A DNA stretch of 64,000 bases, from positions 64,001 through 128,000 of the forward strand of contig JBIPSI010000016.1 of NCBI GenBank assembly GCA_044070495.1. The letters run 5' to 3'. The notes under the pieces are model-generated. The model did not search any database, was not told the origin of the DNA, and worked only from the letters and a program-made list of their open reading frames with translations. Shown here one piece after another: positions 26,147 to 49,318 of this stretch (the first letter of the stretch is position 1; the number at the start of each line of letters is the position of its first letter). The DNA comes from Spirulina sp. Lineage in GTDB: Bacteria; Cyanobacteriota; Cyanobacteriia; Phormidesmidales; Phormidesmidaceae. The translations under genes and the position numbers were made by a program.

Positions 26147-27358
26147 GTGAACCCGGCTATTTTGGCAATTCGGCTGCGCACGACAGTAATCGAGCTTTTT
26201 TCAACCTTCATTCGGTTTGCGGACGATCACTTTGAGGGTTGGGCTAGCGATCGGCGGCTGAAAAAGGCCATGGAAGACCGCCTGGGCCAGGCCGACGCGG
26301 CTGCCCAATCGGAGGGGTTTTGGGCGCTATACTGGCACAAATGCTGGCCGACCCACAAGCAGGCAGAGACCCATCTACAGGCCTATCTCCAGGAGCCCTG
26401 CTATTGGGCCACCCAACGGATCACCCAGCGCTTTGGCAGCGATCAGTGGACCCTGGCCGATGGCTTTCAAACGGCGATCGCCCACACGCCCAGCATTCTC
26501 AAGCGCTACCGCCCCGACTATGGCAGCGATTTGAGGGCCTACGCCCTAACCGCGTTTGGCAACGTAGTGCGCGACCAGATGCGGCAGCAGCAGACGGCTA
26601 ATATTTGTAGCGATTGGGGCCTGTTGCGACGGCTGAGCCGGGTGCAGGTGCAGCGATCGCTGGAGGCCGCTGGAATTACCCAGACCGAGGCGGCCATTCT
26701 ACTCTGGCAGTGCTTTAAAGCGGTTTGTCGGCCCGATCCCCAACGCTCGGTGCGGGCGCTACCGTCGTCACCCCCCGACCAGCTGGCCCAAATGGCGGCG
26801 CGCTACAACCGTCTGCGGGTTCAGCTCAGCCCCATCCCTCCCCGGTTGGAGGACGAGGATCTGGTGGGCAAGCTTCAGCAAATTGTGCAAGCGGCCCGTG
26901 CCCACCTGGTGCCAAAGGTGACGTCGCTGAACGATCCTCAGTTTGACCACGGGGCGCACGAGCAGATCGAGAGCTTGATCGGTGATGATGTGCCGATGGC
27001 TCGGCTCTTGGCGGAGGAAGCCTATGCGGAACAGCAGCGGCGGGTACGGCAGATGGAGGAGGTGCTGAAGAATGCGATCGCGGCGCTCCCCCCCGCCGAT
27101 CAGACCTTGCTGCGGCTTTACTACCAGGAGCAGTTAACCCAAACGGCGATCGCCCAGCAGCTCCACATTCAGCAGTATCAGGTGTCGCGGCGGCTGAACC
27201 GGGTGCGCCAGCAGTTCCTGGCCGAGGTGGCTCAATGGAGCCAGGAAAGCCTGCATATTGCCCTGGATTCTGCCGTACTAGGCAGTATGAGCGACGCGAT
27301 TCACGAGTGGCTACAGCGGCGTTACGCAGCAGAGGATCTAGATGAGTTTGGTGTTTGA
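26147..27358 (+). CDS. Sigma-70 family (ECF-like) sigma factor
   Basis: ELFSTF, HLQAYLQEPCYW, DWGLLR; region-4 HTH LLRLYYQEQLTQTAIAQQLHIQQYQVSRRL. Start uncertain. Confidence 0.85.
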   Translation: MNPAILAIRLRTTVIELFSTFIRFADDHFEGWASDRRLKKAMEDRLGQADAAAQSEGFWALYWHKCWPTHKQAETHLQAYLQEPCYWATQRITQRFGSDQWTLADGFQTAIAHTPSILKRYRPDYGSDLRAYALTAFGNVVRDQMRQQQTANICSDWGLLRRLSRVQVQRSLEAAGITQTEAAILLWQCFKAVCRPDPQRSVRALPSSPPDQLAQMAARYNRLRVQLSPIPPRLEDEDLVGKLQQIVQAARAHLVPKVTSLNDPQFDHGAHEQIESLIGDDVPMARLLAEEAYAEQQRRVRQMEEVLKNAIAALPPADQTLLRLYYQEQLTQTAIAQQLHIQQYQVSRRLNRVRQQFLAEVAQWSQESLHIALDSAVLGSMSDAIHEWLQRRYAAEDLDEFGV

Positions 27359-28466
27359 CAATCCGGTGCAGCCCGTTCTGGCGATGCCGCCCGATATGGC
27401 CCTGTGGCAGCAGGGCGAGGCGATTGCAGACCCGGCGGCCCGCTGGCGCGTCTACCTGCATCATCTGGGATTCGCGGCCCTGCAAGCCTGGGTACAGGAG
27501 GAATGGGATCAACCGCTGCGGCTCTGGCCCGTCAACGCAGCGGAGCTCTGGCCGTGGGTGGAGGGGCTGGCCCTGGGGCTGGGTGATCGCCGCCTGGTGG
27601 TCATCCTCAGCGAGGCGATTGATGCCAGTGCTCTGACGGTGCCCCAGGAGTGGGTCGATATTCCCGGTTGGGCGGCGGACTACTACCTGGCGGCCCAGGT
27701 GGATGTGGACGAGCAGCGGCTGGTGCTGTGGGGCTATGGCACCCACGCCCAGGTGAAGACTCAGGGGCACTACGAACCGAGCGATTGCACCTACAGCCTG
27801 AGCGACGACGACCTAATTCAAGATTTTTCGGTCTTTTGGGTAGCCCAACAGCTCGAACAGCCCCAAACCTTTTCCCTGCCTGAGTTGCCTCCCCTCTCAG
27901 AGGCCCAGGCCGAGCGCCTGATCGATCGGCTGGTCTATGCGGTGGAACCGAGACTAGAAATTCCCTTTGAGCAGTGGGGGGCGCTGCTCAGCGATGAGGG
28001 CTGGCGGCAACGGCTCTGGCGACAGCGGCGGGGGATGGTGGACCTGAGCGGCTGGCTGAGGGATTTGGTAGAACCGGGCTGGCGATCTCTGACTTCGCTG
28101 TTGCCCCGCACTCCGGCTTTGGGGTTTCGCTCCAGCGGTACTCAAAGTGCGACGGTCAGTCGGGGCAAGGCCATCTGGCTCAGTCCTCCCGACTGTTTCC
28201 TAGTGCTGGGCCTGCGGGTGACACCCACCGAGGATGATCGCCGCCGTATTAGCGTGCAGCTCTTTCCCACCGATGTGGACCTGCTGCCTGTGGGCATGAC
28301 CCTGACTCTGGAACTGCCGGAAACCGGAGAGCCCCTGCAAACGGTGCAGGCGGGGGGGCAGGACAACTATATACAAATTCCCAGTTTTCGCTGTCCGCCG
28401 GGGCAGCGGTTTCGGGTGAGCATTCAGCTGGCAGATGCTATCGTGCAGGAGGACTTCGTCAGCTAA
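27342..28466 (+). CDS. DUF1822 family protein
   Basis: VPQEWVDIPGWAADYYLAAQVD, WGYGTH, LSGWL...GW, C-terminal beta domain (DNYIQ); overlaps the sigma stop. Confidence 0.85.
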   Translation: MSLVFDNPVQPVLAMPPDMALWQQGEAIADPAARWRVYLHHLGFAALQAWVQEEWDQPLRLWPVNAAELWPWVEGLALGLGDRRLVVILSEAIDASALTVPQEWVDIPGWAADYYLAAQVDVDEQRLVLWGYGTHAQVKTQGHYEPSDCTYSLSDDDLIQDFSVFWVAQQLEQPQTFSLPELPPLSEAQAERLIDRLVYAVEPRLEIPFEQWGALLSDEGWRQRLWRQRRGMVDLSGWLRDLVEPGWRSLTSLLPRTPALGFRSSGTQSATVSRGKAIWLSPPDCFLVLGLRVTPTEDDRRRISVQLFPTDVDLLPVGMTLTLELPETGEPLQTVQAGGQDNYIQIPSFRCPPGQRFRVSIQLADAIVQEDFVS

Positions 28467-28470
28467 TGCG

Positions 28471-30837
28471 ATGGAACAGCGCCTGTTGCTCAATCTGGGC
28501 CAGGGCGATTGGCACACCGGCTTTGCCAGCGTCACGGCTCAGCTTTGGGAAAATGAGCAGCCGCCCATGCAGTTTGTCGGCAGTTTGCCGCCGATGCCCC
28601 AGCTAGCGGCCCAGTACCAGCGCTGGCAGCAGCTTTACGAGGCTATCTACGGCAGCCAGAGCCGCTGGCGACGGTCGGCATCGCCCTTTGAGTTTGAAGC
28701 GGGGGCGCTCACCCATGTGTCGCACCAGGAGTTTGCCACCCTCTGCACCACCCTGCACACCGATCTAAACCAGTGGCTGATGGCGGCCACCTTTGCCCCC
28801 ATCGAGCGCCGCCTGCGCACGCACCTTTCGGCCCATGCCAACCTTCAGGTCATGCTCACCGCCCACGCCAAAGCGGTGCTGCGGTTCCCCTGGCGTCTGT
28901 GGCACTTGTTTGACGACTATCCCAATGCCGAACTCTCGTTGAGTCTGCCTGACTACGGACGCGCCCTGAAGCAGAGTCAGGGCAATTCCACAGGAACGGT
29001 CAGAATTTTGGCGGTGCTGGGCACAGACACCGGTATTGATATCGAAACCGATCGGCGGATTTTGAGCCAGTTACCCGACGCTGAGGTAACGCTGCTGGCT
29101 CAGCCCAACCTGAGGGAATTGCAGCATCAACTCTGGGAGTCCAGCTGGGATATTTTGTTTTTTGCGGGACACAGCAGCAGCCAGGGAAAGGGGCATCTCC
29201 AGGTCAACCCCACTGAATCACTAACCATTGAGCAGCTCAAATACGCCCTGCAACGCACCATCACTAATGGCTTACAGCTAGCGATTTTGAACTCCTGCGA
29301 CGGGCTGGGGCTGGCCTGGGATCTGGCGGATCTGCACCTGCCCCAAACCATCGTGATGCGGGAGCCGGTACCCGATGCAATCGCCCACCAGTTTCTCAAG
29401 GGGTTTTTGGCCCGGTTTGCCAGCGGTCAGCCCCTCTACAGCGCCGTGCGCGACGCCCGCGAACGGCTCCACGGCCTAAGCGAGCTGGGGATCTGCGCCG
29501 CCTGGCTGCCCGTGATTGTGCAAAACCCGGCGGAGGTGCCCCCCACCTGGCCACAGTTGGCGGGGCAACCCCAGGCGCAACCCACGCCCCCGGCGATGAC
29601 GCGGTTTCGGCCAAATCCGGCCCAGCGGCGGGTGGGCCTGGGCTGTCTGGCGATGGCCGCCACGGTTTTGGCCCTGCGCTGGTTCGGCTTCCTGCAACCG
29701 GCGGAGCTGTGGGCCTACGATGCCCTGCTGCGATCGCGCCCCCCAGAAACGCCGGACTCTCGCCTGCTGCTGGTGACGGTGGACGAGAGCGATATCCAGG
29801 CCCAAGCGGGGTTAGAACGGCGGGGTTCGGTAGCCGATGAGACCCTGCTCCAGACGCTGACCCTGCTGATGGAGGGGGAACCCCGCCTGATTGGCCTCGA
29901 TCTGTACCGCGACTTTTCGGCCAGCGATCCGGCCCTGGTTGAAGCCCTGGGGCAGCCCCATCTGGTGGGGCTGTGCAAAAGCCGGGATGCGATCGCAGGC
30001 TCGGTTGGCATCAGCCCGCCGCCAGAACTGCCCGCCACCCAGGTCGGCTTCAGTGACTTTATTGAAGAGGCCGATGGCCGGGTGCGGCGGCAACTGCTGA
30101 CCCTGACCCCCGACCCGGCTTCGCCCTGCACCTCGCCCTACGGCTTTGGGGCGCTGATCGCGATTCGCTACCTGCAAGCCACCGGGCTGCAACCCCGGTT
30201 TACCGCCCAGGGCGATTTGCAGATCGGGGAGGTGGTCTTGCCCCGGTTGACCAACCGCACTGGCGGACTGCAACGGATGGACAGCGGCGGCAATCAGATC
30301 CTGCTCAACTACCGCGCCCTGCCTACCCCCGACCAGATCGCAGCGACGGTTTCCCTCCAGCAGCTTTTGAATGGGCAGGTGAATTTGGAACGGCTGCGTG
30401 ATCGCATTGTCTTAATCGGCGTCACGGCCCCCAGTGGCGGCGATTACTGGTCTACCCCCTACGGCAGCCAGGGGCAGGCCCGAACGGCAGGCGTGTTTAT
30501 GCAGGCCCAGATGATCAGCCAGATCGTCAGCGCCGTGGAGGACGGGCGGCCCCTGATCTGGGTCTGGCCCCAGTGGGCCGAGGCGCTGTGTATTGCGGTG
30601 GGGGCGATTGCCGGTAGTCTGCTGGCCTGGCGCTGGCGATCAGCCCGGCTAGCTCTAGCCTGTGCGCTAACCACGAGTGCGCTGACTGTAGTCGCCTGGG
30701 CCACTCTATTCACAGGCGGATGGCTGCCGCTGTTGCCCACCCTGGTAGCCCTGAACAGTAGCGCGTTATTAACCGCTACCCTAACCCGCCCATCAGACCG
30801 ATATCTCCCTCTGAAATCAGCCGATGGGGGGCCGTAG
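28471..30837 (+). CDS. CHAT (caspase-like) + CHASE2 membrane sensor
   Basis: CHAT dyad FFAGHS ... LAILNSCDG, then a TM, CHASE2 (AYDALLRSRP, IGLDLYRD, DGRVRRQLL, RIVLIG, GVFMQAQM) and three C-terminal TMs. Confidence 0.9.
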   Translation: MEQRLLLNLGQGDWHTGFASVTAQLWENEQPPMQFVGSLPPMPQLAAQYQRWQQLYEAIYGSQSRWRRSASPFEFEAGALTHVSHQEFATLCTTLHTDLNQWLMAATFAPIERRLRTHLSAHANLQVMLTAHAKAVLRFPWRLWHLFDDYPNAELSLSLPDYGRALKQSQGNSTGTVRILAVLGTDTGIDIETDRRILSQLPDAEVTLLAQPNLRELQHQLWESSWDILFFAGHSSSQGKGHLQVNPTESLTIEQLKYALQRTITNGLQLAILNSCDGLGLAWDLADLHLPQTIVMREPVPDAIAHQFLKGFLARFASGQPLYSAVRDARERLHGLSELGICAAWLPVIVQNPAEVPPTWPQLAGQPQAQPTPPAMTRFRPNPAQRRVGLGCLAMAATVLALRWFGFLQPAELWAYDALLRSRPPETPDSRLLLVTVDESDIQAQAGLERRGSVADETLLQTLTLLMEGEPRLIGLDLYRDFSASDPALVEALGQPHLVGLCKSRDAIAGSVGISPPPELPATQVGFSDFIEEADGRVRRQLLTLTPDPASPCTSPYGFGALIAIRYLQATGLQPRFTAQGDLQIGEVVLPRLTNRTGGLQRMDSGGNQILLNYRALPTPDQIAATVSLQQLLNGQVNLERLRDRIVLIGVTAPSGGDYWSTPYGSQGQARTAGVFMQAQMISQIVSAVEDGRPLIWVWPQWAEALCIAVGAIAGSLLAWRWRSARLALACALTTSALTVVAWATLFTGGWLPLLPTLVALNSSALLTATLTRPSDRYLPLKSADGGP

Positions 30838-30925: not shown

Positions 30926-31663
30926 ATGACCATGAGACGTGCTGTGATGCGATCGTCCCTATCCGCCGCCATCTCCCTGGGGGTAGCTGCTGCCCTGGGA
31001 TGGCCCCTGGTGCCTGTGGCCCAGGCCGTGCCTACCCCACCCGACCAGGGCGCACCCAGCGGACGGCAGCGAGGTGGAGCTTCTCGCGGTGACTGTATGG
31101 CCTATCAAGGCTTGACCGCGCTGGTGCCCGTAGTGGATGGCAGCGTCTGGAGTCAGACCCATAGCCCCACCCCCGACTTCTTCTTTTACATTCCGCAATC
31201 CCTCACCGCAGACGTTCCCCTAGAGATGGTGGTGCAGGATAGCGACGATAACTACGTCTTCCGCAAGCAGTTCTCCGTCGATGCCGCCGCTGGCATTCTC
31301 ACGGTTCCGGTTAGCCCTGCCGAGACTGAACTGACCCCCGGCGAAAGCTACTCCTGGACCTTTTCAATCTACTGCGATGCAGCTCGTCCGTCGGCCTCGG
31401 TTGCTGTGTTTGGCACGGTTACTCGAGTGGCGGCTGGGACAATGCCTGAAGCAGGTCACCCCCTTACCCCGGCGCAACAGCTTGACCTGGCCAAGCAGTA
31501 TGCCGCTGCCGGGATCTGGCACGAAGCATTGGGGCTGACCCTGGCGCTGCATCAGGCCGACCCAGACAATGCCGAATACCTCGAAGCGTTGGATGCGCTG
31601 CTTCAACAGGCTGGACTGGCGGACTTATCGCCTGCTGTGTCGGTGAGTGAGGTGCCTGAGTGA
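30926..31663 (+). CDS. DUF928 domain protein
   Basis: Signal peptide, GGASRGDC, LTALVP, FFFYIP, YSWTFSIYC, YAAAGIWHEAL. Confidence 0.88.
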   Translation: MTMRRAVMRSSLSAAISLGVAAALGWPLVPVAQAVPTPPDQGAPSGRQRGGASRGDCMAYQGLTALVPVVDGSVWSQTHSPTPDFFFYIPQSLTADVPLEMVVQDSDDNYVFRKQFSVDAAAGILTVPVSPAETELTPGESYSWTFSIYCDAARPSASVAVFGTVTRVAAGTMPEAGHPLTPAQQLDLAKQYAAAGIWHEALGLTLALHQADPDNAEYLEALDALLQQAGLADLSPAVSVSEVPE

Positions 31664-31711: not shown

Positions 31712-34678
31712 ATGGGGAGTTATGAAACCGGTGTAATTCGTGCTCGTTGGCCTTTGGCCGCAGGAGCTGCACTTTTGGGCATGGTTGGCAGCCCCTTTCT
31801 GGTGCAGGCGCAGGTGATCCCAGATGCCACCCTACCGTCAGAAAACTCTATCGTCACCACCGATGGCACGACCTCTCAAATCACGGGTGGGGCCATTCGG
31901 GGCGGCAACCTGTTCCACAGTTTTGAGCAGTTTTCGGTGCCCTTGGGCGATACCGTTGTCTTTGCCAACGGGGACAGCTTTGCCAACATCATCAACCGCG
32001 TCACCGGGGGGACGCTTTCGGATCTCCAGGGGACGATCCAGGCGGGCGGTAACGCCAATGTATTCCTGATCAACCCCGCAGGTATTGTGTTTGGCCCCAA
32101 TGCCCGGTTGGAGATAGGCGGCTCTTTCTTCGCCAGCACGGGGGAAGGGCTGCGGTTTGAGACTGGGTTTGTGTACGATGTCGCTGGCGCTGAGGCCCCG
32201 CCGCTGCTGACCATCAGTGCGCCCATCGGTCTCCGCTTGGGCAATGTTTCAGGGGGCAATGCCCCAGGGGATGTAGTGGTGGCTGGGGCAGACCTCTCCA
32301 TGGCTGAGGGCCAAACCCTGGCCTTGATTGGAGGGAATATCTCCCTGACGGGAGCGCAGCTCACTACCCCTGGAGGCCGCATTGAAGTTGGCAGCGTACA
32401 GGCAGGCCAGGAGCTAGGACTCGCCCCTGACGGGCTAGGGTTTGATGTGGGCTTCGACGGCGTGAATAACTTTGGCGATATTCAACTTTCTAATCGGTCG
32501 GTCTTGAATGCCAGCGGCGCAGGCGGGGGGGCGATCGCACTTCACGGCAATACAGTCACCCTATCCGGTCAGTCAGCCATTATTTCCGATACCCTGGGCG
32601 ATCAGGATGGTCGCGGTGTGCAAATTACTGCCGACAGTCTTCAACTCTTGGATAGCTCCTACATCGGGGCAGCGAGCCTAGGGCGCGGAGCCTCTAGCAG
32701 CATCGATATCACGGCAAACGATATCGTAATGGTCGGCACTGGCATCGCCAACTACAAACTTGTTGAGTTCAGTACCTTTTTAGGAGCCAGGCAGATTAGC
32801 GATCGCCAAATTGGTGGCATTTCTACAACCACCGTTGCGTCGGGCCGAACCGGAAACATCTCCTTAAATGCTCAAAACATATTGATGGATGAAGGGGTGT
32901 TGCTGTCTACCGAGTCATTTGGCACGGGCGACAGCGGTGATATTAATATTACTGCCACCGAATCGCTCCGCCTAAGAGGGTCAGGTGTTGTGTCGGGTAG
33001 TCAAGTGTCTGGAATACCCCTAGTCACTCCCGGTGGTATTCCCACTGGATTATCCACTAGTAACATTCCAGCAGGTGAGGGTGGACGTATTGCGATCAAT
33101 ACAGCCCAGCTAGCTGTAGAAGATGGTAGTGCAATTGCAGCTATGACCCAAAGCGATCAACGTTCGGGAGATGTTGTTATCAGCGTCTCAGATTCAATCA
33201 CGTTAAGGGGCTTTTTTGCCCCTTTCTTCCTTCCAACATCAGTCACGACTATTACGATTGGTGGTAACGGGACAGCCGGAAATTTGCAAATTGAAACAGG
33301 TCGTTTAATTGTTCAAGATAGCTCAGCCATCTATGCCGACTCGGGTAGTCGAGGCATAGATGGCAACGTTACTTTTGGTGGAATAGCTGGTGATATATCT
33401 ATCGTTGCCACTAATTCAGTTGATATTGTCGGCAATCGAACTGTTGTGGCTGGATTAGCAGCTAGTGGTGTGCGATCAAGAACCTTTTCTGATTCACCCG
33501 CAGGCACCATCCAGATCACCACACCAATCCTGAATGTTCGTGACGGCGGTCTCATTAGCAGTGCTACGTTGAATGACGGAGCAGGCGGTGCAATCAACAT
33601 TGATGCCCAGACAGTTGTTGTGTCAGGGGATAGGAATCGCCCCACCGAAACCTTCAGCAGTATTGGTGCCAGTTCAGGTATTGAGCGGCAGACAGCGTTT
33701 ACCACCGGAGCGATTGAGTCTTTGCCCGCTGCTGGATCTGGGGGAAGCATCACCATCAATGCGACGAATCTAGCCTTACAAGGTGCCGCTGAAATATCTG
33801 TGGGGAGTTTTGGGTCAGGCACTGCTGGCAACCTTGACATTACAGCTAATACCGTTCGTCTAAATGATGGCGGCAGTCTAACTGCAACAACGACCTCCGG
33901 TGGAGGGGGCAATATTGCTCTGACATCCCAGACCCTGGCTCTTGACGGCAGCCACATCACCGCCAGTTCGGATAGCGGCGATGGCGGCAACCTGGCTTTT
34001 CATCTTCAGGATTTTCTACTGCTGAGAAACGGTAGTTTAATCTCTACTGAAGCGGGGACAGATGGGGCTGGGGGCAACGGCGGCGACATTGCCCTCAACC
34101 TGCCCACTGGCTTTCTCGTTGCCGTACCCACGGAAAATAGCGACATTCGCGCCAATGCCTTTGAGGGGGATGGCGGCAGCGTCACCATCACCGCCCGCAG
34201 TCTGCTGGGGATCGAATTTCGTCCTGACGTGATCGATACGCCCCTCAGCGACATTACCGCCAGCTCCCGTTTTGGCAACAGCGGCACGGTCACCATTGAC
34301 GAACTGGCCCCAGATATCGCCCAGGACGATGTGGCCCTTCCGACTGAAACAGCGCCAACAGAACTGGCCCAGGGCTGTCGGGGGCAGGGGGCACAGGCGG
34401 GTAGCTTCGTAGTTACCGGGCGTGGCGGTCTGCCCACCAACCCGGCTGATTCGCTCAGCGCCGATTCCGTTTGGCAAGATTTGGCTCCCATTCCGCTGAC
34501 TGAGGACGGTGCGGAGCCATCTTCTGAGGCCCCCGATCCTGAACCCATGGTTGCGGCTACCCCCATAGTCGAAGCCCAAAGCTGGACTAGGGCTGAGGAT
34601 GGCACAGTAATGCTCCTGGCGGATGCCACCGCTGCGCCAGATCACTTTGTGTCAAGAGTGAATTGTGCGGGTAATTGA
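31712..34678 (+). CDS. Filamentous haemagglutinin-like TpsA protein
   Basis: AQVIPDATL, NLFHSFEQFSV, NIINRVTGG, LINPAGIVFGPNA, GGxIxI beta-helix repeats, FVVTGRGGLP, IVEAQSW. Confidence 0.92.
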   Translation: MGSYETGVIRARWPLAAGAALLGMVGSPFLVQAQVIPDATLPSENSIVTTDGTTSQITGGAIRGGNLFHSFEQFSVPLGDTVVFANGDSFANIINRVTGGTLSDLQGTIQAGGNANVFLINPAGIVFGPNARLEIGGSFFASTGEGLRFETGFVYDVAGAEAPPLLTISAPIGLRLGNVSGGNAPGDVVVAGADLSMAEGQTLALIGGNISLTGAQLTTPGGRIEVGSVQAGQELGLAPDGLGFDVGFDGVNNFGDIQLSNRSVLNASGAGGGAIALHGNTVTLSGQSAIISDTLGDQDGRGVQITADSLQLLDSSYIGAASLGRGASSSIDITANDIVMVGTGIANYKLVEFSTFLGARQISDRQIGGISTTTVASGRTGNISLNAQNILMDEGVLLSTESFGTGDSGDINITATESLRLRGSGVVSGSQVSGIPLVTPGGIPTGLSTSNIPAGEGGRIAINTAQLAVEDGSAIAAMTQSDQRSGDVVISVSDSITLRGFFAPFFLPTSVTTITIGGNGTAGNLQIETGRLIVQDSSAIYADSGSRGIDGNVTFGGIAGDISIVATNSVDIVGNRTVVAGLAASGVRSRTFSDSPAGTIQITTPILNVRDGGLISSATLNDGAGGAINIDAQTVVVSGDRNRPTETFSSIGASSGIERQTAFTTGAIESLPAAGSGGSITINATNLALQGAAEISVGSFGSGTAGNLDITANTVRLNDGGSLTATTTSGGGGNIALTSQTLALDGSHITASSDSGDGGNLAFHLQDFLLLRNGSLISTEAGTDGAGGNGGDIALNLPTGFLVAVPTENSDIRANAFEGDGGSVTITARSLLGIEFRPDVIDTPLSDITASSRFGNSGTVTIDELAPDIAQDDVALPTETAPTELAQGCRGQGAQAGSFVVTGRGGLPTNPADSLSADSVWQDLAPIPLTEDGAEPSSEAPDPEPMVAATPIVEAQSWTRAEDGTVMLLADATAAPDHFVSRVNCAGN

Positions 34679-35093: not shown

Positions 35094-35150
35094 ACGCCTT
35101 TAATCAGCGGTATCCGTTGGGAGAAAAGCGACGGCCTGAGGGGGCTACTT

Positions 35151-35276: not shown

Positions 35277-35400
35277 AGGGGGGCTACTGGCCCTGGTGAC
35301 AGTCAAAAGTCAGCCCAGAGGCGATCGCACCTCTACTTTCAAGACAATCAACAGGAGTTAGAAACGGTGAACCTGAACGGATGTTGGAGTTGACGTCACT

Positions 35401-40336: not shown

Positions 40337-40410
40337 TATCCTGTGAGCACATCGTTTGGCTCACCGTTAACGATAAATTTAGGGCCAGATACCATATAAG
40401 AGCAATCTCT

Positions 40411-41472: not shown

Positions 41473-41523
41473 CGCCTGCATAGATGCTTCAGTTTGTCCA
41501 TTTGTATACTTTTTATCACTGCC

Positions 41524-42561
41524 ATGACTCTTCTTTCAAACAGCCTCAAGATTTCTGCAACAGTAACGACAGCTGCTCTCCTAGCTACCTGCTTTTCCCC
41601 TAGTGCGATCGCCGACCAGCCGACCATTGTCACCGTTCAGAAACTCACCGCTGGCGATCGCGCCTGCTATGTCGATGTCATTGATGCGGGGGGAGTCTAC
41701 TCTACAGAATATGCAGCTTTCGAGGTTTGTGAGCAAGATTTAGTCGGTAGAGACGTGAATCTTATCTATGAGCCGGGCAGCATTATAGCTGTCTCGTGCC
41801 AGGGCGATCCGGCCTGTAGCGAAACTGAAACGGTGATGCTGATTACCCAGGCTGAAATCATCGAGGCTCCGACAGTGGGCGTTATCCATGAGGTTATTGT
41901 AGGGGACAGAGCCTGTGATATTGGATTTACAGATGAAACGGGAGAACTCTGGTACCGCCAAGCAACCTTTGCAGTCTGTAATCAAGATTTAATCGGTGAC
42001 ACTGCGCAATTTACCTATGAAGTAGCGGAGATTTCAGCCTATGCTTGCGAGGGCGATCCAACCTGTGAGCAAACCGATGTCGTGACTCTGATTACCAATG
42101 TCGAAATTGTTTCTGACTTGACCCCCAATTTAATCAATGATAGACCTCAAGGTCGCGTGCAGGATCTCCCCGATGGCAACTATCGCTACTGGAGCGGCAC
42201 CACCGATCAAAGTATTGTTTCTGACGATATCCTGATCAATAACGGAGGCACCTTATTTCTGTTCCGAAAGCAGGGTGATAATGTTACAGGCATTTTCTCT
42301 TATGTGAATGCGGAAGCCATCTGTATTAGCGGCCAAGTCAATGGCAACACCGTCAGCGGTCGGGCGGTGCAAACGGGGGAGGGGATTTCTGTCCTGAGTA
42401 GCGGAGAAACCTTTGCAAACTTTGGGCCGAGTGAGACCTTGTCTCTACGTCGAGGTCGCCAGGTCAGCGATGAACAGGTTCGCTATGGCAGCGCCCTTCT
42501 AAATCTCGCAGAACTCAATCGCATTAATGCCGGTACAGCCCTTCCCCCAGGAGGATGCTAG
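41524..42561 (+). CDS. Secreted hypothetical protein with a duplicated Cys-containing domain
   Basis: Signal peptide; two copies of GDRAC...F.VC.QDL.G...C.GDP.C..T..V.LIT. Confidence 0.75.
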   Translation: MTLLSNSLKISATVTTAALLATCFSPSAIADQPTIVTVQKLTAGDRACYVDVIDAGGVYSTEYAAFEVCEQDLVGRDVNLIYEPGSIIAVSCQGDPACSETETVMLITQAEIIEAPTVGVIHEVIVGDRACDIGFTDETGELWYRQATFAVCNQDLIGDTAQFTYEVAEISAYACEGDPTCEQTDVVTLITNVEIVSDLTPNLINDRPQGRVQDLPDGNYRYWSGTTDQSIVSDDILINNGGTLFLFRKQGDNVTGIFSYVNAEAICISGQVNGNTVSGRAVQTGEGISVLSSGETFANFGPSETLSLRRGRQVSDEQVRYGSALLNLAELNRINAGTALPPGGC

Positions 42562-42731
42562 AACTCATTATGTGCCCTGAGACTATCAAGAAAAATAGGC
42601 TTGGGGTGCGTGACAGTTTTCCTTCAACAGATCGTTTCAACCTGTGCTAGCGTAGGTAGATCGCAGGGCTTGATTTGAATGAGATCGTCTACGGGTGAGG
42701 TGCGATCAATGATAGTTGCCAAAAGAAATTC

Positions 42732-42778
42732 TCAAACTTAGGGCTGAGAGCTGCATACTCCGTAAACATCAACCGTAT
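42732..42778 (+). promoter_or_regulatory. Putative alternative-sigma promoter, copy 4
   Basis: tcaaacttagggctgagagc TGCATACT (42752) N13 CCGTAT (42773), ~30 nt before ATG 42808. Confidence 0.72.
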
Positions 42779-42807
42779 ATGTTCTTAGACTACATGGAGA
42801 AGTATTT

Positions 42808-43713
42808 ATGTTATTGATACCTGAACTTGAAAGAGTAAACCATTGGGCTTCGGTTCACAGTCCACTACATTCCCATAGATCTGCAAAGCGCGAACGTCAA
42901 TCGGTAACACATTTTGCACCATTATTCCTTACAGAAAGTAACGTTGGCGAGCATGGCTTTCAACCGCCTGTAGTCTCTGGAAGCGCTTTAGTCGGAGATG
43001 GGAAGGAAAATGGCTTAAGGAAAGATTTAGAAGTAGGCAATTGTCTACCTGGTTTAGGAGAACCTCTTACTGCAGAGGGGTATAATGCTCTGTTAGAACA
43101 ATATCGTGGAAGTCCGCTCACTGGTTGTACAACCGTAATGGATATGGCAAGGATAAAAGCCGGTTATAACCCCCTTAGTCCAGACTTTGACGGTAATAAG
43201 TCAGCTTTCGATGATTACGTTTCAAGAATAATGCAGTCTCCTTTTTTCTTTCTCGATTATTCAAGCCGAACGGATTATCACAAGGAAGAGCAAAATTGGG
43301 ATCAAGCGATTAGTGGAATTGCTGATCTCTATGAGGGAATTGAATCTGGCAGTAAAGATTCAATAGTCAAAAGCTTAGCAGCCATGGCCCAGGCAGCAGC
43401 CTCAAGAAAGAACACAAAAAACACGCAGAACTTGTTTGCGCAAAGCACAATAAGCATCAATGATAAAATCGAGGTTTTTATTTACTCCAGCCTAGTTGAG
43501 ATGGAGGAAAGCCAGTCTAAGGGTAGCGATTCTAAGCAGACTGATATGACCATCATAAAAGCTAAGTTAACCTTTTACAGCACTATGTGGCCATCATACG
43601 CGCAGATGGTGCTAGGTCATCATATAAAGCTAACGAGTGATTGGTTAGACGAGAATACATTAAAGTCAGGTTCTGAAACAACAAATCTGAATTTAGGACA
43701 AAATAAAGCATAG
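42808..43713 (+). CDS. Hypothetical protein, probable Evf (Erwinia virulence factor)/Cyt-like fold
   Basis: GGAG RBS. SPLTGCTTVMDMARIKAGYNP, SLAAMA, NLFAQSTI and DWLDEN resemble Evf as I recall it. AT-rich. Confidence 0.6.
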   Translation: MLLIPELERVNHWASVHSPLHSHRSAKRERQSVTHFAPLFLTESNVGEHGFQPPVVSGSALVGDGKENGLRKDLEVGNCLPGLGEPLTAEGYNALLEQYRGSPLTGCTTVMDMARIKAGYNPLSPDFDGNKSAFDDYVSRIMQSPFFFLDYSSRTDYHKEEQNWDQAISGIADLYEGIESGSKDSIVKSLAAMAQAAASRKNTKNTQNLFAQSTISINDKIEVFIYSSLVEMEESQSKGSDSKQTDMTIIKAKLTFYSTMWPSYAQMVLGHHIKLTSDWLDENTLKSGSETTNLNLGQNKA

Positions 43714-43737
43714 GGTGAGACTGGTTTCGCAAAAACA

Positions 43738-43780
43738 CAAGATTGGGAGATTAATGAAGTTTCGTCATCTCCCAATCTTA
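43738..43780. terminator. Hairpin between the two Evf-like genes
   Basis: aagattgggagat ... atctcccaatctt. Confidence 0.55.
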
Positions 43781-43833
43781 TTGATTACACATCGAAATCC
43801 GCGAAAAATATACCGAATAGGCTTTTGACTAGA

Positions 43834-44697
43834 ATGAATTTAGAAAGCACTAATAAGTGGATTGAACACGTAAACAGTTTTCCGGTTGAATTTAATCTTG
43901 ATCCTACCCGTATCCATCCGTTCACCCTTGAGCTTCCATCTAGCATATCAACTAACAATAAAACGTCTGGTGTGGGCGCAATATTATTAGGAAAAGGAAT
44001 AACAGAAGTTCATAAGCAAGCGGAAGAGCTGGCAGCAACAAAGCCAGAGGAAAGACCGTGGGAAAATTCAGATTGGTTAGATAAATTTAGTGCTTCTCCT
44101 GCAAACGGATTGGCCAGCATTTTAGGTTTTATACAGCATAGAGTGAACTGGAATCCAATTAGAAATTCCGAAGCGACACGGAATAATTTCTCGGCCTTTA
44201 TTAACCTACTTTCACTTAGCCCATATTTGGCACATAATATTGTTGACAAAACCAAAGTTAACTTCAAGAATAAAGACTATCCGAAGATAATTGATGAAAT
44301 TCTATCTCTGTACACTGGATTATCTCCTGAGCAAATGCAGGATGTGAAGACTAACTTGCGGCAAATGGTGTATGCGGCTTTATCAGAAGCGGGTAGTCAG
44401 CAAACCAATACATTATTTGTTCAAAACATTATGGAAGTTAAGACGCCAGACATAATAGCTTTCTACGTGTACTCTTCGAAGGTTTCATTTATTTACCATG
44501 GCGGGAAGCATCATTTCATGGAGACACATGCCATAATTGATCGCATTAAACTTATCTTTGATGCATCAAAGGTTTGGAATCGTACCACTGCTGCAATTGT
44601 TTCTGGAATCCTATATAACGATGTCAATCAATGGTTAGAAAACAATAATGCTCCTGATAAACAGTCGATTCAACCCACAATAGATCTGTGTTTCTAA
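43834..44697 (+). CDS. Paralogue of 42808-43713, probable Evf/Cyt-like
   Basis: SPANG...NWNP, LSPY, LYTGL, TNTLFVQN, YVYSS, QWLENN align with the upstream gene; AT-rich. Confidence 0.55.
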   Translation: MNLESTNKWIEHVNSFPVEFNLDPTRIHPFTLELPSSISTNNKTSGVGAILLGKGITEVHKQAEELAATKPEERPWENSDWLDKFSASPANGLASILGFIQHRVNWNPIRNSEATRNNFSAFINLLSLSPYLAHNIVDKTKVNFKNKDYPKIIDEILSLYTGLSPEQMQDVKTNLRQMVYAALSEAGSQQTNTLFVQNIMEVKTPDIIAFYVYSSKVSFIYHGGKHHFMETHAIIDRIKLIFDASKVWNRTTAAIVSGILYNDVNQWLENNNAPDKQSIQPTIDLCF

Positions 44698-44899: not shown

Positions 44900-47491
44900 A
44901 TGGCGTGGCGCATTGATAGCGTGCTTTCCTGGCTGCGGCTATTCAAACTAAGCCTTTACCTATTTTTAGGCATAGTCCTTGCCTTCACTCCCGTTTGGGG
45001 ACTTAGTCTAGTCCATGCTGGAGAAGCGAGAATGGCTGAGATCGCCGCTTCCCCCTCGCCTAACGACCTGCTCGATCAGGGTCGCCAAGCTTATACATCC
45101 CAGCGATATATCGAGGCTGTAGCCGCTTGGGAAGAGTCAACAATGTTATTCACTGATCGCCCGCTCCAGCAAGCCCTGGCTCTCGGCTATCTCACCCTGG
45201 CGCACCAGCAACTCAGCCAGTGGGACGCCGCCGATCGCACCATCACCCACAGCTTAAACCTCCTCGCCACCGCCCCCGACTCCCCCCAAAAGCTGGCCGT
45301 GAGCGCCCAGGTTCACAACACCCTCGGCAGCCTGCAATTTGCCCTAGGGCAGACCCAGGCTGCCCTAGAAACCTGGCACACCGCTGCCGAGCTGTACAAG
45401 CAAACCGGAGACGAAAGCCGCTACGTCAACGCTCTCCTAAACCAGGTACAGGCCCAGCAGTCATTGGGATACTACCAGCCCGCGCGGCGTACCCTGGCGA
45501 CCCTGGAGCAGCGCCTGCCGCTACAGTCGCTGCCCGTGCAGGTGCTGGGCTATCAACGGCTAGGGCAGACCTACCGCCTGCTGGGCGACCTGGAAATGGC
45601 CCAGGCTCATTTGCAGACTGCTTTGGAACTGGCGCAGCGAGAGCGCTTAGCCACGGGGGCCATCTTGCTGGGGCTGGCCAATACGGCCCAGGGGCAGGGA
45701 GACTGGCAGAGCGCAATCGCTCTCTACCAGCAAGCCGAACAGACCCAGGAATCCGACATTCGCCTCAAGGCCCGCCTGAACCGACTCAGCCTGTTAGCCC
45801 AGCACGATCCTGAGGCGGCTCCACCGCTGGCCGTCTCTCTACCGAGAGATCTAGCCGAAATGCCCCCAGGGCGCAGCCAGATCTATGCCCACATCAACGC
45901 GGCCCAAAGCCTGCTCCAGCTTAAAACCCCTGCTGAGGTCGAAACCGCTGCCCGACTGCTGGCCCAGGCCATTCAGCAGAGCATGGCCTTGCAAGATACC
46001 CGTGCCGAAGCCTATGCCAGGGGCTATCTGGGCCACGCCTACGAGGTCTCCCAGCAGTGGCCGGAGGCGCAGCAGTTAACCGAGCAAGCTCTGACCCTGG
46101 CCCAAGCCCTCAATGCCGCCGATATCGCCTACCAGTGGCACTGGCAGCTAGGTCGCCTGCTCAATCAACAGGGGCAACCAAACCTGGCTTTGCCAGCCTA
46201 CCGGAATGCTTTCACCGCCCTGCAATCCCTCAAACAAGATCTAGTAGCCGTCAGCGACGACCTCCAGTTCTCCTTTCGCGACAGCGTCGAGCCAGTCTAC
46301 CGAGAGCTGGTCGATCTGCTGCTGCAACCGGAACCCCAAACACCCTCTTCCGTCACCCCACCACCCCACTACCCCACCACCCGCCTCACCGAAGCCCGCT
46401 TAGTCATCGAAGCCTTGCAGATCGCCGAACTCAACAATTTCTTTAGAACCGCCTGCCTGGAGGGTGAGCAGGTCGCCCTTGAGGCGGTGAGTCAGTCCAC
46501 CACCGCCGTCATTTACCCAATTATTCTGCCGGATCGGCTGGAGATCATCGCCAGTCTGCCGGGGCAGCCCCTGCGGCAGTACACCAGCCCAGTGCCCCAG
46601 GCAGCGCTGGAGCAGACCCTGACGGACTGGCGGCAAAACCTGGAACGGCGGTTCACCGCTCCCGAGGGCAGGGCCCTGGGACAGCAGCTCTACCGCTGGC
46701 TGATTGACCCGATGCAGGAGGTACTGGCCGAAACCCGGCCCCAAACCCTGGTCTTCGTGCTGGATGGTGCCCTGCGAAACACCCCCATGGCGGCCCTGTA
46801 CGACGGGGAGCGGTATTTGGTGGAAGACTATGCGATCGCCCTCTCCCCCGGTCTCCAACTTCTCGGCCCCCGGCCTTTACAGGACAGTCGGATGGCGGCA
46901 CTCTTGGCAGGGCTGACGGAGCCTAGACATGGCTTTAGCGCCCTCACCAACGTGAACAACGAGATTCAAACCATTCAGGCGCTGCTCGACAATCGGGTCT
47001 TGCTCGATGAACAGTTCACCACAACAGCCCTAGCCCAGCAGATCGCAAAGACTGAGCTGCCCATTGTGCACCTGGCCACCCATGCCCAGTACAGCTCTAA
47101 TCTGCAAGACACCTTCATTCTGGCCTGGGATCGCCCCATGCCGGTGGATGAGTTGAGCCTCCTGCTCAGCGCCGGAGACCAGAGCCGGGTGGAACCCATT
47201 GAGCTGCTGGTGCTCAGCGCCTGCGAGACGGCCACCGGAGACAACCGCGCCGCCCTGGGTTTGGCGGGTCTGTCGCTCCAGGCGGGTGCCCGCAGTACCC
47301 TGGCCTCCCTGTGGAATTTAGACGACGCTTCTGGAGCGTATTTTATTCGCCAGTTCTATCAAGCCCTGGCCCAGCCCGGTGCAACTAAAGCCAAAGCGCT
47401 GCGCCAGGCCCAAAGGTCGCTGCTACAGCATCCTGACTACCGCCATCCGATCTATTGGTCGGCCTATGTGCTGGTGGGAAACTGGCTGTAG
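44900..47491 (+). CDS. TPR + CHAT domain protein
   Basis: N-terminal signal/TM, TPR repeats, FRDSVEPVY, VHLATHA, LLVLSACETA, ASLW, HPIYWSAYVLVGNWL. Confidence 0.92.
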   Translation: MAWRIDSVLSWLRLFKLSLYLFLGIVLAFTPVWGLSLVHAGEARMAEIAASPSPNDLLDQGRQAYTSQRYIEAVAAWEESTMLFTDRPLQQALALGYLTLAHQQLSQWDAADRTITHSLNLLATAPDSPQKLAVSAQVHNTLGSLQFALGQTQAALETWHTAAELYKQTGDESRYVNALLNQVQAQQSLGYYQPARRTLATLEQRLPLQSLPVQVLGYQRLGQTYRLLGDLEMAQAHLQTALELAQRERLATGAILLGLANTAQGQGDWQSAIALYQQAEQTQESDIRLKARLNRLSLLAQHDPEAAPPLAVSLPRDLAEMPPGRSQIYAHINAAQSLLQLKTPAEVETAARLLAQAIQQSMALQDTRAEAYARGYLGHAYEVSQQWPEAQQLTEQALTLAQALNAADIAYQWHWQLGRLLNQQGQPNLALPAYRNAFTALQSLKQDLVAVSDDLQFSFRDSVEPVYRELVDLLLQPEPQTPSSVTPPPHYPTTRLTEARLVIEALQIAELNNFFRTACLEGEQVALEAVSQSTTAVIYPIILPDRLEIIASLPGQPLRQYTSPVPQAALEQTLTDWRQNLERRFTAPEGRALGQQLYRWLIDPMQEVLAETRPQTLVFVLDGALRNTPMAALYDGERYLVEDYAIALSPGLQLLGPRPLQDSRMAALLAGLTEPRHGFSALTNVNNEIQTIQALLDNRVLLDEQFTTTALAQQIAKTELPIVHLATHAQYSSNLQDTFILAWDRPMPVDELSLLLSAGDQSRVEPIELLVLSACETATGDNRAALGLAGLSLQAGARSTLASLWNLDDASGAYFIRQFYQALAQPGATKAKALRQAQRSLLQHPDYRHPIYWSAYVLVGNWL

Positions 47492-47536
47492 CCCTATAAT
47501 GCAGTCGCCACAACCGTAGTTTTTCTAGCCCCCACC

Positions 47537-49318
47537 TTGACGCGATCGCAAACCCGATGCCCTTGGGTTGGCTTGGCGCTTGCCTGTCCAGCTATGCTTC
47601 AAACCCTGGCAGCCGCTTCTCCTACCAGGGCGCAAATGGTGGAGCGATCACTTGATCCCGTCCCTCTGATGCTCTCCCAAGGGGGGCCAGCGCTACCCCG
47701 TTTGCCAAACCAGCCGATTCCAGAACCGCCCTTGCCCGACCAGCTGCTGCCCACCCTGCCCCCGCCGGAGGAACTTCTGCCATCGGCTGAGCCCGCGCCA
47801 CCAGAAGCACCCCTGGACGGAACCGACGCTACTTTTTTTGTTAGCACTATCGAGATTACGGGCAGCACCGTCTTTTCCCAGGCCGATTTGGCTGACCTGG
47901 TGGCCCCCTACCTCAACCGGCAGGTCAGTTTTGGGGAACTGCTGGAACTGCGCAATGCCATTACCGAACGCTACGTTACGGCGGGCTACATTACCTCAGG
48001 GGCCATCCTGCCGCCCCAAACCCTAGTGGACGATAGGGTCACGATTCAGGTGATTGAAGGGGAACTCGAAGACATTGTGGTAGTCGGCTTGAATCGCCTT
48101 AGTCCGGCCTATGTCCGCAGCCGCCTGGGGTTGGCTAGTGCCCCTCCCCTCAATGTGGATCGATTGCTGGCGGGGTTGCAGCGGCTCCAGCTCAATCCCC
48201 TGATTGAAACGGTGGCGGCAGACTTGCAGGCGGGCAGTAGAGCGAACCTCAGCGTGCTGGTGGTCGATTTGGCGGAGGCGGATTCCTTTGCCGTGGATCT
48301 GAGTTTGGACAACTACGGGGCGGACAGCACCGGGGTCGGACAGCGCCGACTGCTGTTGAGCGAGGGCAATCTTTCGAGCCTGGGCGATCGTATCACCCTG
48401 GAGTACGAAAACACCGACGGCAGCAACGGCGTTGATCTCAGCTACACCCTGCCCGTGAGTCCAAACGGCGATATCCTGCGCTTCAGAGTGGGCTACGCAA
48501 ACAGCCGGGTCATTGACCCCAATTTTCAGGTGCTCGACATTTCCTCCAGCAGTGTTTACTACGACCTGGGCTATCGCCATACCCTGATCGAAACCCCCAC
48601 CGAAGAACTCACCCTGGGCCTCACCCTATCCCATCAGCACAGCCAAACCCGCCTGGGCCTAGACAACATTGGCCCCTTTCCCCTCTCCCCAGGGGCCGAC
48701 CGTGATGGCATCACCCGCATCACGGCCCTGCGCTTCTCCCAACAGTGGACCCAGCGCAGCCAGACCCATGTGCTGGCCTTTCGTTCCCAATTCAGCCTGG
48801 GGCTAGATTGGCTCAACGCCACCGTCAACCCCACTGGCCCCGACAGCCGCTTTCTGGCCTGGCGCGGTCAGGGCCAGTGGCTCCAACGCTTTGGCCCCGA
48901 TACCCTGCTGCTGCTGCGGGGCGACGCCCAACTGGCGAGCAATGACCTGCTATCGCCCGAGAAATTTGGCCTGGGCGGTGCCCAGAGCGTGCGCGGCTAT
49001 GGGCGAGATGTGCTGCTGCGCGACAGTGGGGTGCTGCTCTCGGCAGAGTTGCGATCGCCCATCGCCCGCATTCCAGAACTGGATAGCACTCTCCAGATCA
49101 TTCCGTTTCTGGATGCTGGGGTGGCCTGGAGTGTAAACGATGACTTGTCCTCTGGCCCTAACACCTTGATTGGCACTGGACTGGGCCTACTTTGGCAGCA
49201 GGGCGATCGCCTCTCCATGCGAGTCGATCTGAGTCTTCCCCTTGTACCCCTGGCTGAAGATAGAAACGTTTTCCAAAACAGCCGTATCTATGGTTCAGTT
49301 CGGTACGCACTCTTCTGA
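47537..49318 (+). CDS. ShlB/FhaC/HecB (TpsB) outer-membrane transporter
   Basis: POTRA (ITGSTVFS, YVTAGYITSGA, VIEG), LGGAQSVRGY, GTGLGL, C-terminal Phe. Confidence 0.92.
   Translation: MTRSQTRCPWVGLALACPAMLQTLAAASPTRAQMVERSLDPVPLMLSQGGPALPRLPNQPIPEPPLPDQLLPTLPPPEELLPSAEPAPPEAPLDGTDATFFVSTIEITGSTVFSQADLADLVAPYLNRQVSFGELLELRNAITERYVTAGYITSGAILPPQTLVDDRVTIQVIEGELEDIVVVGLNRLSPAYVRSRLGLASAPPLNVDRLLAGLQRLQLNPLIETVAADLQAGSRANLSVLVVDLAEADSFAVDLSLDNYGADSTGVGQRRLLLSEGNLSSLGDRITLEYENTDGSNGVDLSYTLPVSPNGDILRFRVGYANSRVIDPNFQVLDISSSSVYYDLGYRHTLIETPTEELTLGLTLSHQHSQTRLGLDNIGPFPLSPGADRDGITRITALRFSQQWTQRSQTHVLAFRSQFSLGLDWLNATVNPTGPDSRFLAWRGQGQWLQRFGPDTLLLLRGDAQLASNDLLSPEKFGLGGAQSVRGYGRDVLLRDSGVLLSAELRSPIARIPELDSTLQIIPFLDAGVAWSVNDDLSSGPNTLIGTGLGLLWQQGDRLSMRVDLSLPLVPLAEDRNVFQNSRIYGSVRYALF

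Follow-up and report, generated by a model that had tools for sequence, protein, structure and literature searches.

We describe a gene cluster of the cyanobacterium Spirulina sp. that joins a sigma factor, a DUF1822 protein and a membrane receptor fused to a caspase-like CHAT protease, within a window of 64,000 nucleotides (nt; contig JBIPSI010000016.1 of assembly GCA_044070495.1, positions 64,001-128,000) to which all coordinates given here refer. On the plus strand of this window, a 403-residue sigma-70-family sigma factor (26147-27358; Pfam Sigma70_r4 and r2) is followed by a 374-residue DUF1822 protein (27342-28466; Pfam E 9.5e-72), a 788-residue receptor-protease with CHAT and CHASE2 domains and an EACC2-type N terminus (28471-30837), a 245-residue DUF928 protein (30926-31663; Pfam E 2.4e-36) and a 988-residue TpsA-type exoprotein with an N-terminal two-partner secretion (TPS) domain (31712-34678; Pfam TPS E 1.1e-54 and TIGR01901). 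Further downstream on the same strand lie a block of seven genes (35401-44697), an 863-residue TPR-CHAT protease (44900-47491; Pfam CHAT E 2.6e-57 and TPR) and a TpsB outer-membrane transporter with POTRA and a ShlB/Omp85 barrel (47537-49318; Pfam ShlB, POTRA_2 and Omp85). An earlier note on this DNA had read the same gene content and order from the letters, and the Pfam assignments bear it out, with sigma to TpsA forming one tight run and TPR-CHAT and TpsB following about 10 kb on. The gene coupling that it described likewise holds: the sigma and DUF1822 reading frames overlap by 17 nt, and the ATG of the CHAT-CHASE2 gene at 28471 (MEQRLLLNLG), which agrees with the consensus start of 54 homologues, comes 4 nt after the DUF1822 stop at 28466. 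Sigma and DUF1822 are co-translated.

The distribution of this arrangement was followed in 80 loci retrieved by a DUF1822 profile from species-representative genomes, with open reading frames (ORFs) classed by BLASTP against the window proteins. All of them are labelled as cyanobacteria or cyanobacterial metagenome-assembled genomes (MAGs), except for one MAG labelled Crocinitomicaceae and one entry labelled 'uncultured bacterium'. A sigma gene lies directly upstream of DUF1822 in 69 of the 76 loci with room for it (among the seven misses, L014 and L074 have sigma nearby), and an EACC2-CHAT receptor gene lies directly downstream in 47 of the 66 loci that leave 3 kb or more for it. The sigma–DUF1822 pair, often encoded by overlapping genes, is the conserved core of these loci, and since DUF1822 has sigma as its partner on one flank and the protease-receptor on the opposite one, it forms the common link between the two. 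Of the 47 receptor loci, 27 hold DUF928 within 10 kb on either side of DUF1822, 26 a TPS protein, 14 TPR-CHAT and 3 TpsB, counts that are limited by the 10-kb flanks of the retrieved loci.

The sigma factor passes TIGR02937 (90.2 bits against a cut-off of 42.9) and the Pfam model for region 4, the region 2 model scoring 19.4 bits, below its cut-off of 24; in the PDB, the profile of the protein finds sigma-F and FliA, over their regions 2 and 4. The AlphaFold2 (AF2) model, with a mean predicted local distance difference test score (pLDDT) of 86.2, has sigma factors as all of its top Foldseek matches and features an N-terminal extension (residues 14-66), region-2 helices (71-153), inserted helices (156-254), a disordered stretch (263-282), region 4 (284-369) and a C-terminal helix (375-400), and hydropathy indicates no hydrophobic segment. 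The translation start probably lies a few codons inside the GTG frame, near the TTG at 26162, as judged from an alignment of 36 sigma homologues. Canonical extracytoplasmic function (ECF, group 4) sigma factors consist of regions 2 and 4 only, joined by a short linker in about 200 residues. By its profile matches and predicted structure the window protein is a genuine sigma factor and not a canonical short ECF factor, because it spans 403 residues with N-terminal, internal and C-terminal additions in the AF2 model. Elsewhere in the same genome, two DUF1822 paralogues (L085, G000:C12:102994-107992; L086, G000:C35:8495-11058) are each preceded by a protein of 448-468 residues without Pfam or NCBIfam match; these proteins give weak but collinear hhalign alignments to the sigma family (E 1.2e-3 and 8.8e-3), share the SDW of the sigma-family motif CSDWGLLRR (as SDWAIL) and may constitute a more divergent sigma-like family. 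The DUF1822 copy on C12 (L085) is itself followed by a further CHAT-CHASE2 gene.

On the longer 800-residue frame starting at 28435, by which its Pfam positions are numbered, the receptor-protease carries CHAT at 203-345 and CHASE2 at 408-728. Its N-terminal 185 residues are conserved among the 54 homologues, the name EACC2 for this constant region resting on the description in PMC8195603 and not on a reference model. Hydropathy places hydrophobic segments at 388-406, 702-720 and 729-747, such that the constant region and CHAT precede the first transmembrane (TM) segment (388-406) and CHASE2 lies between TM segments. This arrangement supports in silico a cytoplasmic CHAT and a periplasmic CHASE2, in line with the topology assumed in the earlier note; the same topology was inferred for a metacaspase-CHASE2 protein by Asplund-Samuelsson et al. 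2012, in the accessible part of that paper (PMC3501461). The His and Cys motifs that had been noted in both CHAT domains of the window are indeed present (FFAGHS / LNSCDG and LATHAQ / LSACE), and the catalytic His and Cys are invariant in their relatives, in 54 of 54 EACC2-CHAT and 19 of 19 TPR-CHAT sequences. The window's own genome has 23 CHAT matches, and its 51-kb contig C35 (L086-L088) carries about ten CHAT genes, mostly TPR-CHAT, together with an EACC2-CHAT-CHASE2 gene, a DUF1822 pair and a subtilase.

DUF1822 and its predicted complex with sigma

The AF2 model of DUF1822 (mean pLDDT 83.9) comprises an alpha/beta N-domain (about 12-173), a helical part (187-257), a disordered stretch (258-268) and a C-terminal beta-sandwich (272-374). 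In VIA-align, the top ranks for the N-domain are PD-(D/E)xK nucleases (D212 at Z 7.6, Hjc at 7.4, DpnI at 7.4 and I-Ssp6803I at 7.2) and those for the C-domain are immunoglobulin (Ig)-like sandwiches (beta-sandwich at Z 6.8). The program warns that Z values below 8 can reflect a common arrangement alone, and a nuclease-like N-domain followed by an Ig-like C-domain is therefore a tentative description of the predicted fold; a catalytic D...(D/E)xK set is not evident by eye, without structural superposition, among the invariant residues, which are mostly aromatic. Foldseek against the PDB returned a single match at E <= 0.001, spanning 107 columns, and a PDB profile search found no solved structure related to DUF1822 by sequence. 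Judged by the model, DUF1822 is clearly not a TPR protein. Classical anti-sigma domains are helical and often zinc-binding, and usually come with a TM segment; DUF1822 is not of this type, as it matches no anti-sigma model in Pfam or NCBIfam, is modelled as alpha/beta plus beta-sandwich and lacks any hydrophobic segment by hydropathy.

At E <= 0.001 the DUF1822 family extends to 2913 representative clusters, and every one of the best 150 of these 2913 matches is a full-length DUF1822; NCBIfam holds no family for DUF1822, DUF928 or TPR-CHAT. Departures from the common architecture include one protein (P0204) in which DUF1822 is fused to a sigma-4/GerE-type helix-turn-helix (HTH) and a TRADD-like N domain, a second (P0251) in which it is fused to a TRADD-like N domain, and a third (P0191) with HEAT repeats inserted after the conserved linker arginine described below. 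The domain composition of P0204 and P0251 lends support to a functional link between sigma and DUF1822.

Co-folding of sigma with DUF1822, a check that the earlier note had proposed with AlphaFold-multimer, predicts binding: three runs gave ipSAE values of 0.84, 0.83 and 0.83, where none of three controls exceeded 0.00, agreed with one another in at least 90% of contacts and kept a partner pLDDT of at least 81. Of 157 solved complexes, 116 pass the ipSAE mark, as do 2 of 215 mismatched pairs, a calibration that is only rough here since the complex was run with custom alignments, and the score expresses the confidence of the model and is not a measurement. A pass from model memory is unlikely, because DUF1822 has no solved relative by sequence. 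The DUF1822 contacts fall in the N-domain (3-38, 90-99, 122-134, 155-172 and 201-202). Those of sigma fall at 116-151, where region 2 ends, on the inserted helices (161-223), in region 4 (325-366) and on the C-terminal helix (373-386); mapped on the AF2 model, residues 139-151 are the end of region 2 and residues 342-366 the region-4 recognition helix. In this prediction the DUF1822 N-domain grips sigma at region 2.4, along the inserted helices, at the recognition helix and at the C-terminal helix, and as both promoter-reading parts of sigma would be covered, its position is anti-sigma-like. The sigma contact residues are modestly conserved (82 of 5000 random sets score as well). On these predictions DUF1822 would bind sigma and is a candidate for its anti-sigma.

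A linker with a pLDDT below 50, otherwise free to vary in length and sequence, joins the helical part to the C-domain and holds Arg263, which is conserved in 87 of the 88 aligned DUF1822 sequences. The residue before it is usually aromatic or hydrophobic and the residue after it is often Ser. This pattern marks Arg263 as a candidate cleavage site.

Periplasmic partners and the distal genes

Hydropathy detects signal-like hydrophobic segments in DUF928 (residues 14-32) and in TPR-CHAT (8-26), the latter protein being probably exported on account of this N-terminal segment. All four DUF928 genes of the window's genome adjoin a CHASE2 gene, which encodes the receptor-protease in the window, a CHASE2-kinase on contig C18, a CHASE2-only protein on C1 and a Ser/Thr-kinase-CHASE2 protein on C6. 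DUF928, a CHASE2-kinase, TpsA, a CHASE2-cyclase, TPR-CHAT, a second TpsA and TpsB lie within 21 kb on C18. In the wider phylum, DUF928 was found in 62 of 201 sampled genomes. Among 20 DUF928 loci sampled from 13 single-contig genomes, within the high-scoring matches listed, a CHASE2 gene adjoins DUF928 in 12 (EACC2-CHAT in five, a cyclase in four and a hybrid kinase in three); of the other eight, one has TpsA genes only and seven stand alone among housekeeping genes. The presence of DUF928, often with TpsA, TPR-CHAT and TpsB, beside CHASE2 receptors of any output fits an input module, and this gene neighbourhood supports a reading of DUF928 as the periplasmic input module of CHASE2 receptors. 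The extracytoplasmic components singled out in the earlier note, DUF928, TpsA, TPR-CHAT and TpsB, thus do recur around such receptors. One CHASE2-DUF928 neighbourhood is noted by Hu et al. 2017 in the accessible part of their text (PMC5587647).

TpsA and TpsB carry the domains of two-partner secretion, TPS in the former and POTRA plus a ShlB barrel in the latter. Two fusion proteins of the same genome combine elements of this machinery with CHAT: a 1947-residue protein on C6 (L084:7150-12993) has an N-terminal TPS domain and a C-terminal CHAT, and a 1547-residue protein on C1 (L083:9261-13904) has POTRA, TPR and CHAT. Here CHAT proteases are built into the secretion machinery, and the fusion of CHAT to TPS and to POTRA argues that these TPR-CHAT proteases act outside the cytoplasm. 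TpsA ends in a C-terminal module (34250-34678) of the form Cys ... TGRGGLP ... IVEAxGW ... Cys, which by eye is recognisable in most of the set formed by the window protein and 16 homologues, is absent in L070 and is altered in L057. The DUF928 N terminus (31040-31100) holds a conserved GGxSRGxC stretch. It is speculation that the Arg-Gly motifs of the TpsA tail and of DUF928 could serve as sites for an exported CHAT protease.

The tpsA and tpsB genes of the window do not form one operon, with 12.9 kb between the end of TpsA (34678) and the start of TpsB (47537); in the paralogous cluster on C18 they are adjacent. TPR-CHAT and TpsB (44900-49318) could belong to a separate secretion module loosely tied to the sigma operon, the 23-kb 'system' then being two units and an unrelated insertion. 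The 10.2 kb of DNA that part them from TpsA upstream, taken up by seven unrelated genes whose G+C is lower, speak for such a separation, as do the counts of 14 TPR-CHAT and 3 TpsB genes around the 47 receptor genes. The flank length keeps these counts low, however, and in L034 and L047 the locus itself has TPR-CHAT after TpsA, in L029 and L042 TpsA is succeeded by a TPR gene that is truncated where the locus stops, and all parts are found compactly together with CHASE2 receptors in C18, L127, L132 and L134. We consider a separate module possible, though on the whole unlikely.

The seven intervening genes (35401-44697, plus strand; by Pfam a PAS membrane protein, a ParA-like ATPase, a SulP-STAS transporter with a cyclic-nucleotide-binding domain, a patatin phospholipase and three ORFs without family) have a G+C content of 0.44-0.54 against 0.62, and the 80 related loci hold no homologue of any of them except for a single PAS match in L003. 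Owing to this lower G+C and the lack of counterparts in related loci, we read the block as unrelated to the system and not as its cargo, and the earlier picture of a TpsA/TpsB pair bracketing the cargo is not confirmed. The patatin (40309-41472), whose gene sits after that of the transporter, matches PADLOC phospholipase effector models (E 2.5e-69), whereas no family of Pfam, NCBIfam or PADLOC matches the ORFs at 41494-42561, 42808-43713 and 43825-44697. At the edge of the block, the 720 nt that follow TpsA contain a perfect 16-nt inverted repeat (35150-35165 and 35262-35277, with 96 nt between the arms). Outside the cluster, a tRNA-Thr (CGU) gene at 25571-25642, the sole tRNA within 25000-50000, precedes the sigma operon by some 500 nt; the flanking genes encode a 529-residue protein with a 4Fe-4S motif in its N-terminal part and an HTH in its C-terminal part (23594-25183) and, on the minus strand, a SelO adenylyltransferase (49440-51143).

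The cargo had further been described as motif-bearing, which is not confirmed: no common upstream motif was found in the window or before 70 sigma genes. A k-mer and two-block search of the 255 nt upstream of these 70 genes gave a top dyad count of 12, with up to 11 in shuffles; a sigma-70-type promoter scan gave nothing above chance; and direct repeats within 25000-50000 are mostly GCGATCGC-type words. The HetZ-type promoter TCCGGA-N15-18-TGNA was tried and rejected, with one window match against 1.85 expected by chance, and TCCGGA is not enriched before sigma (2 of 69 loci, against a shuffle mean of 4.9). The lone match, TCCGGA-N15-TGGA at 25819-25843, lies upstream of sigma and was judged a chance occurrence.

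Proposed mechanism and alternative explanations

In the mechanism that we propose, a periplasmic signal involving DUF928, and probably also the exported TPR-CHAT and the TpsA/TpsB pair, would activate the cytoplasmic CHAT domain through CHASE2. Before the signal, the DUF1822 N-domain would hold sigma as an anti-sigma; activated CHAT would then cut DUF1822 after Arg263 in the disordered linker, and with DUF1822 destabilised or released, sigma would become free for RNA polymerase. We rate the full chain, from cleavage of DUF1822 by the receptor-protease to release of sigma, as only a little short of an even chance. The mechanism, in outline the one put forward in the earlier note, is plausible, with a close experimental precedent in the HetF-PatU3-HetZ pathway of Anabaena PCC 7120, which governs heterocyst formation (PMC9457339 and PMC13342950), and it is not new in kind. 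The earlier note had known of no description of such a mechanism; that claim has to be given up, as the gene triad and a protease-triggered sigma output appear in the accessible text of Kaur et al. 2021 (PMC8195603) and the same logic has been shown experimentally for HetF-PatU3-HetZ (PMC9457339 and PMC13342950, as far as accessible).

Several points weigh against this mechanism, the case for which is wholly computational. Nineteen of 66 sigma–DUF1822 pairs have no adjacent protease gene, and in 18 of these none is found anywhere in the locus; in the group of Leptothoe and Leptolyngbya PCC 7375 the pair stands alone among housekeeping genes. Five genomes with a protease-less pair have 3-13 EACC2-CHAT matches elsewhere and 3-11 DUF1822 matches each, many of their DUF1822 genes lying immediately upstream of an EACC2-CHAT gene. 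Shorter DUF1822 paralogues sit beside EACC2-CHAT-CHASE2 and DUF928 genes without a sigma gene (L120, L123 and L124), and such sigma-less pairs imply a role of DUF1822 that does not need an adjacent sigma. The DUF1822 residues in contact with sigma are no better conserved than the rest of the protein (1067 of 5000 random sets equal them), and Arg263 lies outside the predicted interface, so that a cut there alone would leave the sigma-binding part behind. The searches of the window and upstream of the 70 sigma genes yielded no promoter motif or regulon, TPR-CHAT and TpsB are 10 kb away in the window's genome, and homology of sigma with HetZ and of DUF1822 with PatU is shown by no alignment. Finally, the published model favours autoproteolysis of the EACC2-caspase.

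In that model, set out in the accessible part of Kaur et al. 2021 (PMC8195603), a stimulus triggers autopeptidase activation with sigma as the output. Applied to the window, the CHASE2 stimulus would lead the caspase to cut its own chain and thereby free or activate the EACC2 module, and DUF1822 would be a scaffold or adaptor to sigma and not a substrate. Such autoprocessing fits the conservation of the region before CHAT in the 54 homologues, the fusion of DUF1822 to TRADD-N adaptor domains (P0204 and P0251) and the pairing of DUF1822 paralogues with EACC2-CHAT even where sigma is missing. It leaves unexplained, however, why an arginine should be kept in 87 of 88 sequences of an otherwise variable and disordered linker; HetF, the sole studied cyanobacterial CHAT protease, cuts a separate inhibitor in trans (accessible text of PMC9457339), and the TPR label given to DUF1822 in the paper is at odds with the AF2 model. 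We hold autoprocessing to be distinctly unlikely.

DUF1822 could also be a positive partner of sigma, acting as a chaperone, stabiliser or DNA-contacting subunit, in which case the protease would switch the response off. The resemblance of its N-domain to DNA-binding PD-(D/E)xK enzymes (Z 7.2-7.6) and the persistence of the sigma–DUF1822 pair where no protease gene adjoins are compatible with this role, but the resemblance stays below Z 8, the predicted interface covers the promoter-reading recognition helix and the end of region 2, and the closest experimental analogue, PatU3, inhibits its sigma according to the accessible text of PMC13342950, which together leave a positive role very unlikely. 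A conflict or programmed-cell-death system, in which the receptor activates a nuclease-like DUF1822 effector and sigma serves an accessory transcriptional response, draws on the classing of EACC2-caspase and TRADD-N among counter-invader systems by Kaur et al. (accessible text of PMC8195603), on the nuclease-like N-domain and on the abundance of CHAT (23 matches in the genome and the CHAT-rich contig C35), yet is highly improbable given that PADLOC has no match for sigma, DUF1822, receptor or DUF928, that by eye no D...(D/E)xK set is evident among the invariant DUF1822 residues and that the tight link to sigma and a periplasmic sensor points to signalling.

Were sigma indeed freed by proteolysis of DUF1822, the family would represent an anti-sigma class with a new fold, and the cluster would represent a new trans-membrane route in which the sensor is fused to a caspase-like protease and takes the place of a site-1/site-2 cascade. 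HetZ, PatU and HetF would then also belong to a far larger family, one that many cyanobacteria carry, often several times over in one genome. The CHASE2 ligand is not named in the accessible parts of the literature on these proteins, and the pairing of DUF928 with CHASE2 across outputs offers a handle on what CHASE2 senses. The present analysis adds a strong in-silico case for sigma–DUF1822 binding, the corrected DUF1822 fold, the candidate cleavage site and the link of DUF928, TPS and CHAT proteins with CHASE2 receptors.

Comparison with known systems

Kaur et al. 2021 describe an EACC2 constant domain followed by a caspase and a variable C terminus, for example CHASE2, with an ECF sigma and DUF1822 in most neighbourhoods (PMC8195603, accessible part). 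The window has the same triad: a constant N-terminal domain, a caspase fold with His and Cys and a variable C terminus, adjoined by sigma and DUF1822. In its accessible part that study, itself computational, calls DUF1822 a TPR protein and favours autoproteolysis, whereas here DUF1822 is modelled as nuclease-like plus Ig-like and is predicted to bind sigma and to carry a conserved linker arginine. The DUF928, TpsA, TPR-CHAT and TpsB partners belong to the window side of the comparison and are not met in the accessible part of PMC8195603. Full-text literature searches found no report joining CHASE2, a CHAT domain and a sigma factor, none joining a CHAT domain with two-partner secretion, and none joining CHASE2, hemagglutinin and cyanobacteria; they met DUF1822 in two papers and DUF928 in one.

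The HetF-PatU3-HetZ pathway is the closest parallel. From the accessible texts, the CHAT protease HetF cuts PatU3 between Arg117 and Ser118, with Tyr116 before the arginine, and PatU3 sequesters HetZ (Xing et al. 2022, PMC9457339); by cryo-EM, HetZ is a sigma with N-terminal, internal and C-terminal insertions, and PatU3, which is co-transcribed with it, is a likely anti-sigma contacting sigma-4 and the terminal insertions (Hu et al. 2026, PMC13342950). In both systems, then, a CHAT protease would cut, after an arginine, an inhibitor co-transcribed with the sigma that it sequesters, cleavage being proposed in our case. Both sigma factors are ECF-like with N-terminal, internal and C-terminal insertions, the layout of HetZ being taken from its published description; the Tyr-Arg|Ser site of PatU3 compares with the aromatic-Arg-Ser sequence at the candidate Arg263 of DUF1822, and in both the inhibitor contacts sigma-4 and a terminal insertion, the contacts of DUF1822 being predicted. 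The systems differ in that HetF is divisome-associated and lacks CHASE2, whereas the protease of the window forms one protein with its periplasmic sensor and is itself part of the sigma–DUF1822 operon, and in that the HetZ -35/-10 motif is not enriched upstream of the window sigma family. DUF1822 is not mentioned in the accessible main text of PMC9457339 or PMC13342950, nor are DUF1822 and CHAT in the accessible supplement text of the latter.

A deeper relationship has been sought beyond this likeness of parts. In a language-model atlas, with its own Pfam family PF08852 excluded, the nearest clusters to DUF1822 are named PatU (0.82, 170 shared features), and with sigma families excluded a HetZ-related cluster appears at rank 10 (0.89) for the window sigma; both values are below the 0.9 bar, and these two independent matches are leads only. 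The PatU3 site peptide as a back-translated pattern gave one spurious match in five genomes and none in 201 Nostocaceae genomes, the sigma profile brought up nothing in five genomes beyond its own family and the region 4 of further sigmas, and weak own-genome matches in the search for HetZ and PatU homology turned out to be ordinary sigma factors or unrelated proteins. On the broadest view, sigma and DUF1822 would be ancient paralogues of sigma-HetZ/PatU, DUF1822 would be a large family of protease-cleaved anti-sigmas with EACC2-CHAT-CHASE2 as the dedicated proteases, HetF-PatU3-HetZ would be a specialised offshoot, and DUF928, TPR-CHAT and TpsA would generate or present the CHASE2 ligand whatever the output; as a whole we find this rather doubtful.

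Among better-known regulatory circuits, RseA/sigma-E-type systems relay an extracytoplasmic signal through proteolysis of a membrane anti-sigma, which frees an ECF-type sigma. The candidate anti-sigma of the window is, in contrast, soluble and not a classical helical anti-sigma domain, and the protease would be the receptor's own cytoplasmic caspase-fold domain instead of a site-1/site-2 pair. In the type III-E Craspase, Csx29, a TPR-CHAT protein, cleaves Csx30, which binds a sigma; the window cluster differs in having no CRISPR component and in its proposed trigger, a periplasmic sensor and not a target RNA. Compared with two-partner secretion systems, the window TpsA is of a cyanobacterial type that has a Cys-flanked C-terminal module and travels with TPR-CHAT, DUF928 and CHASE2 receptors.

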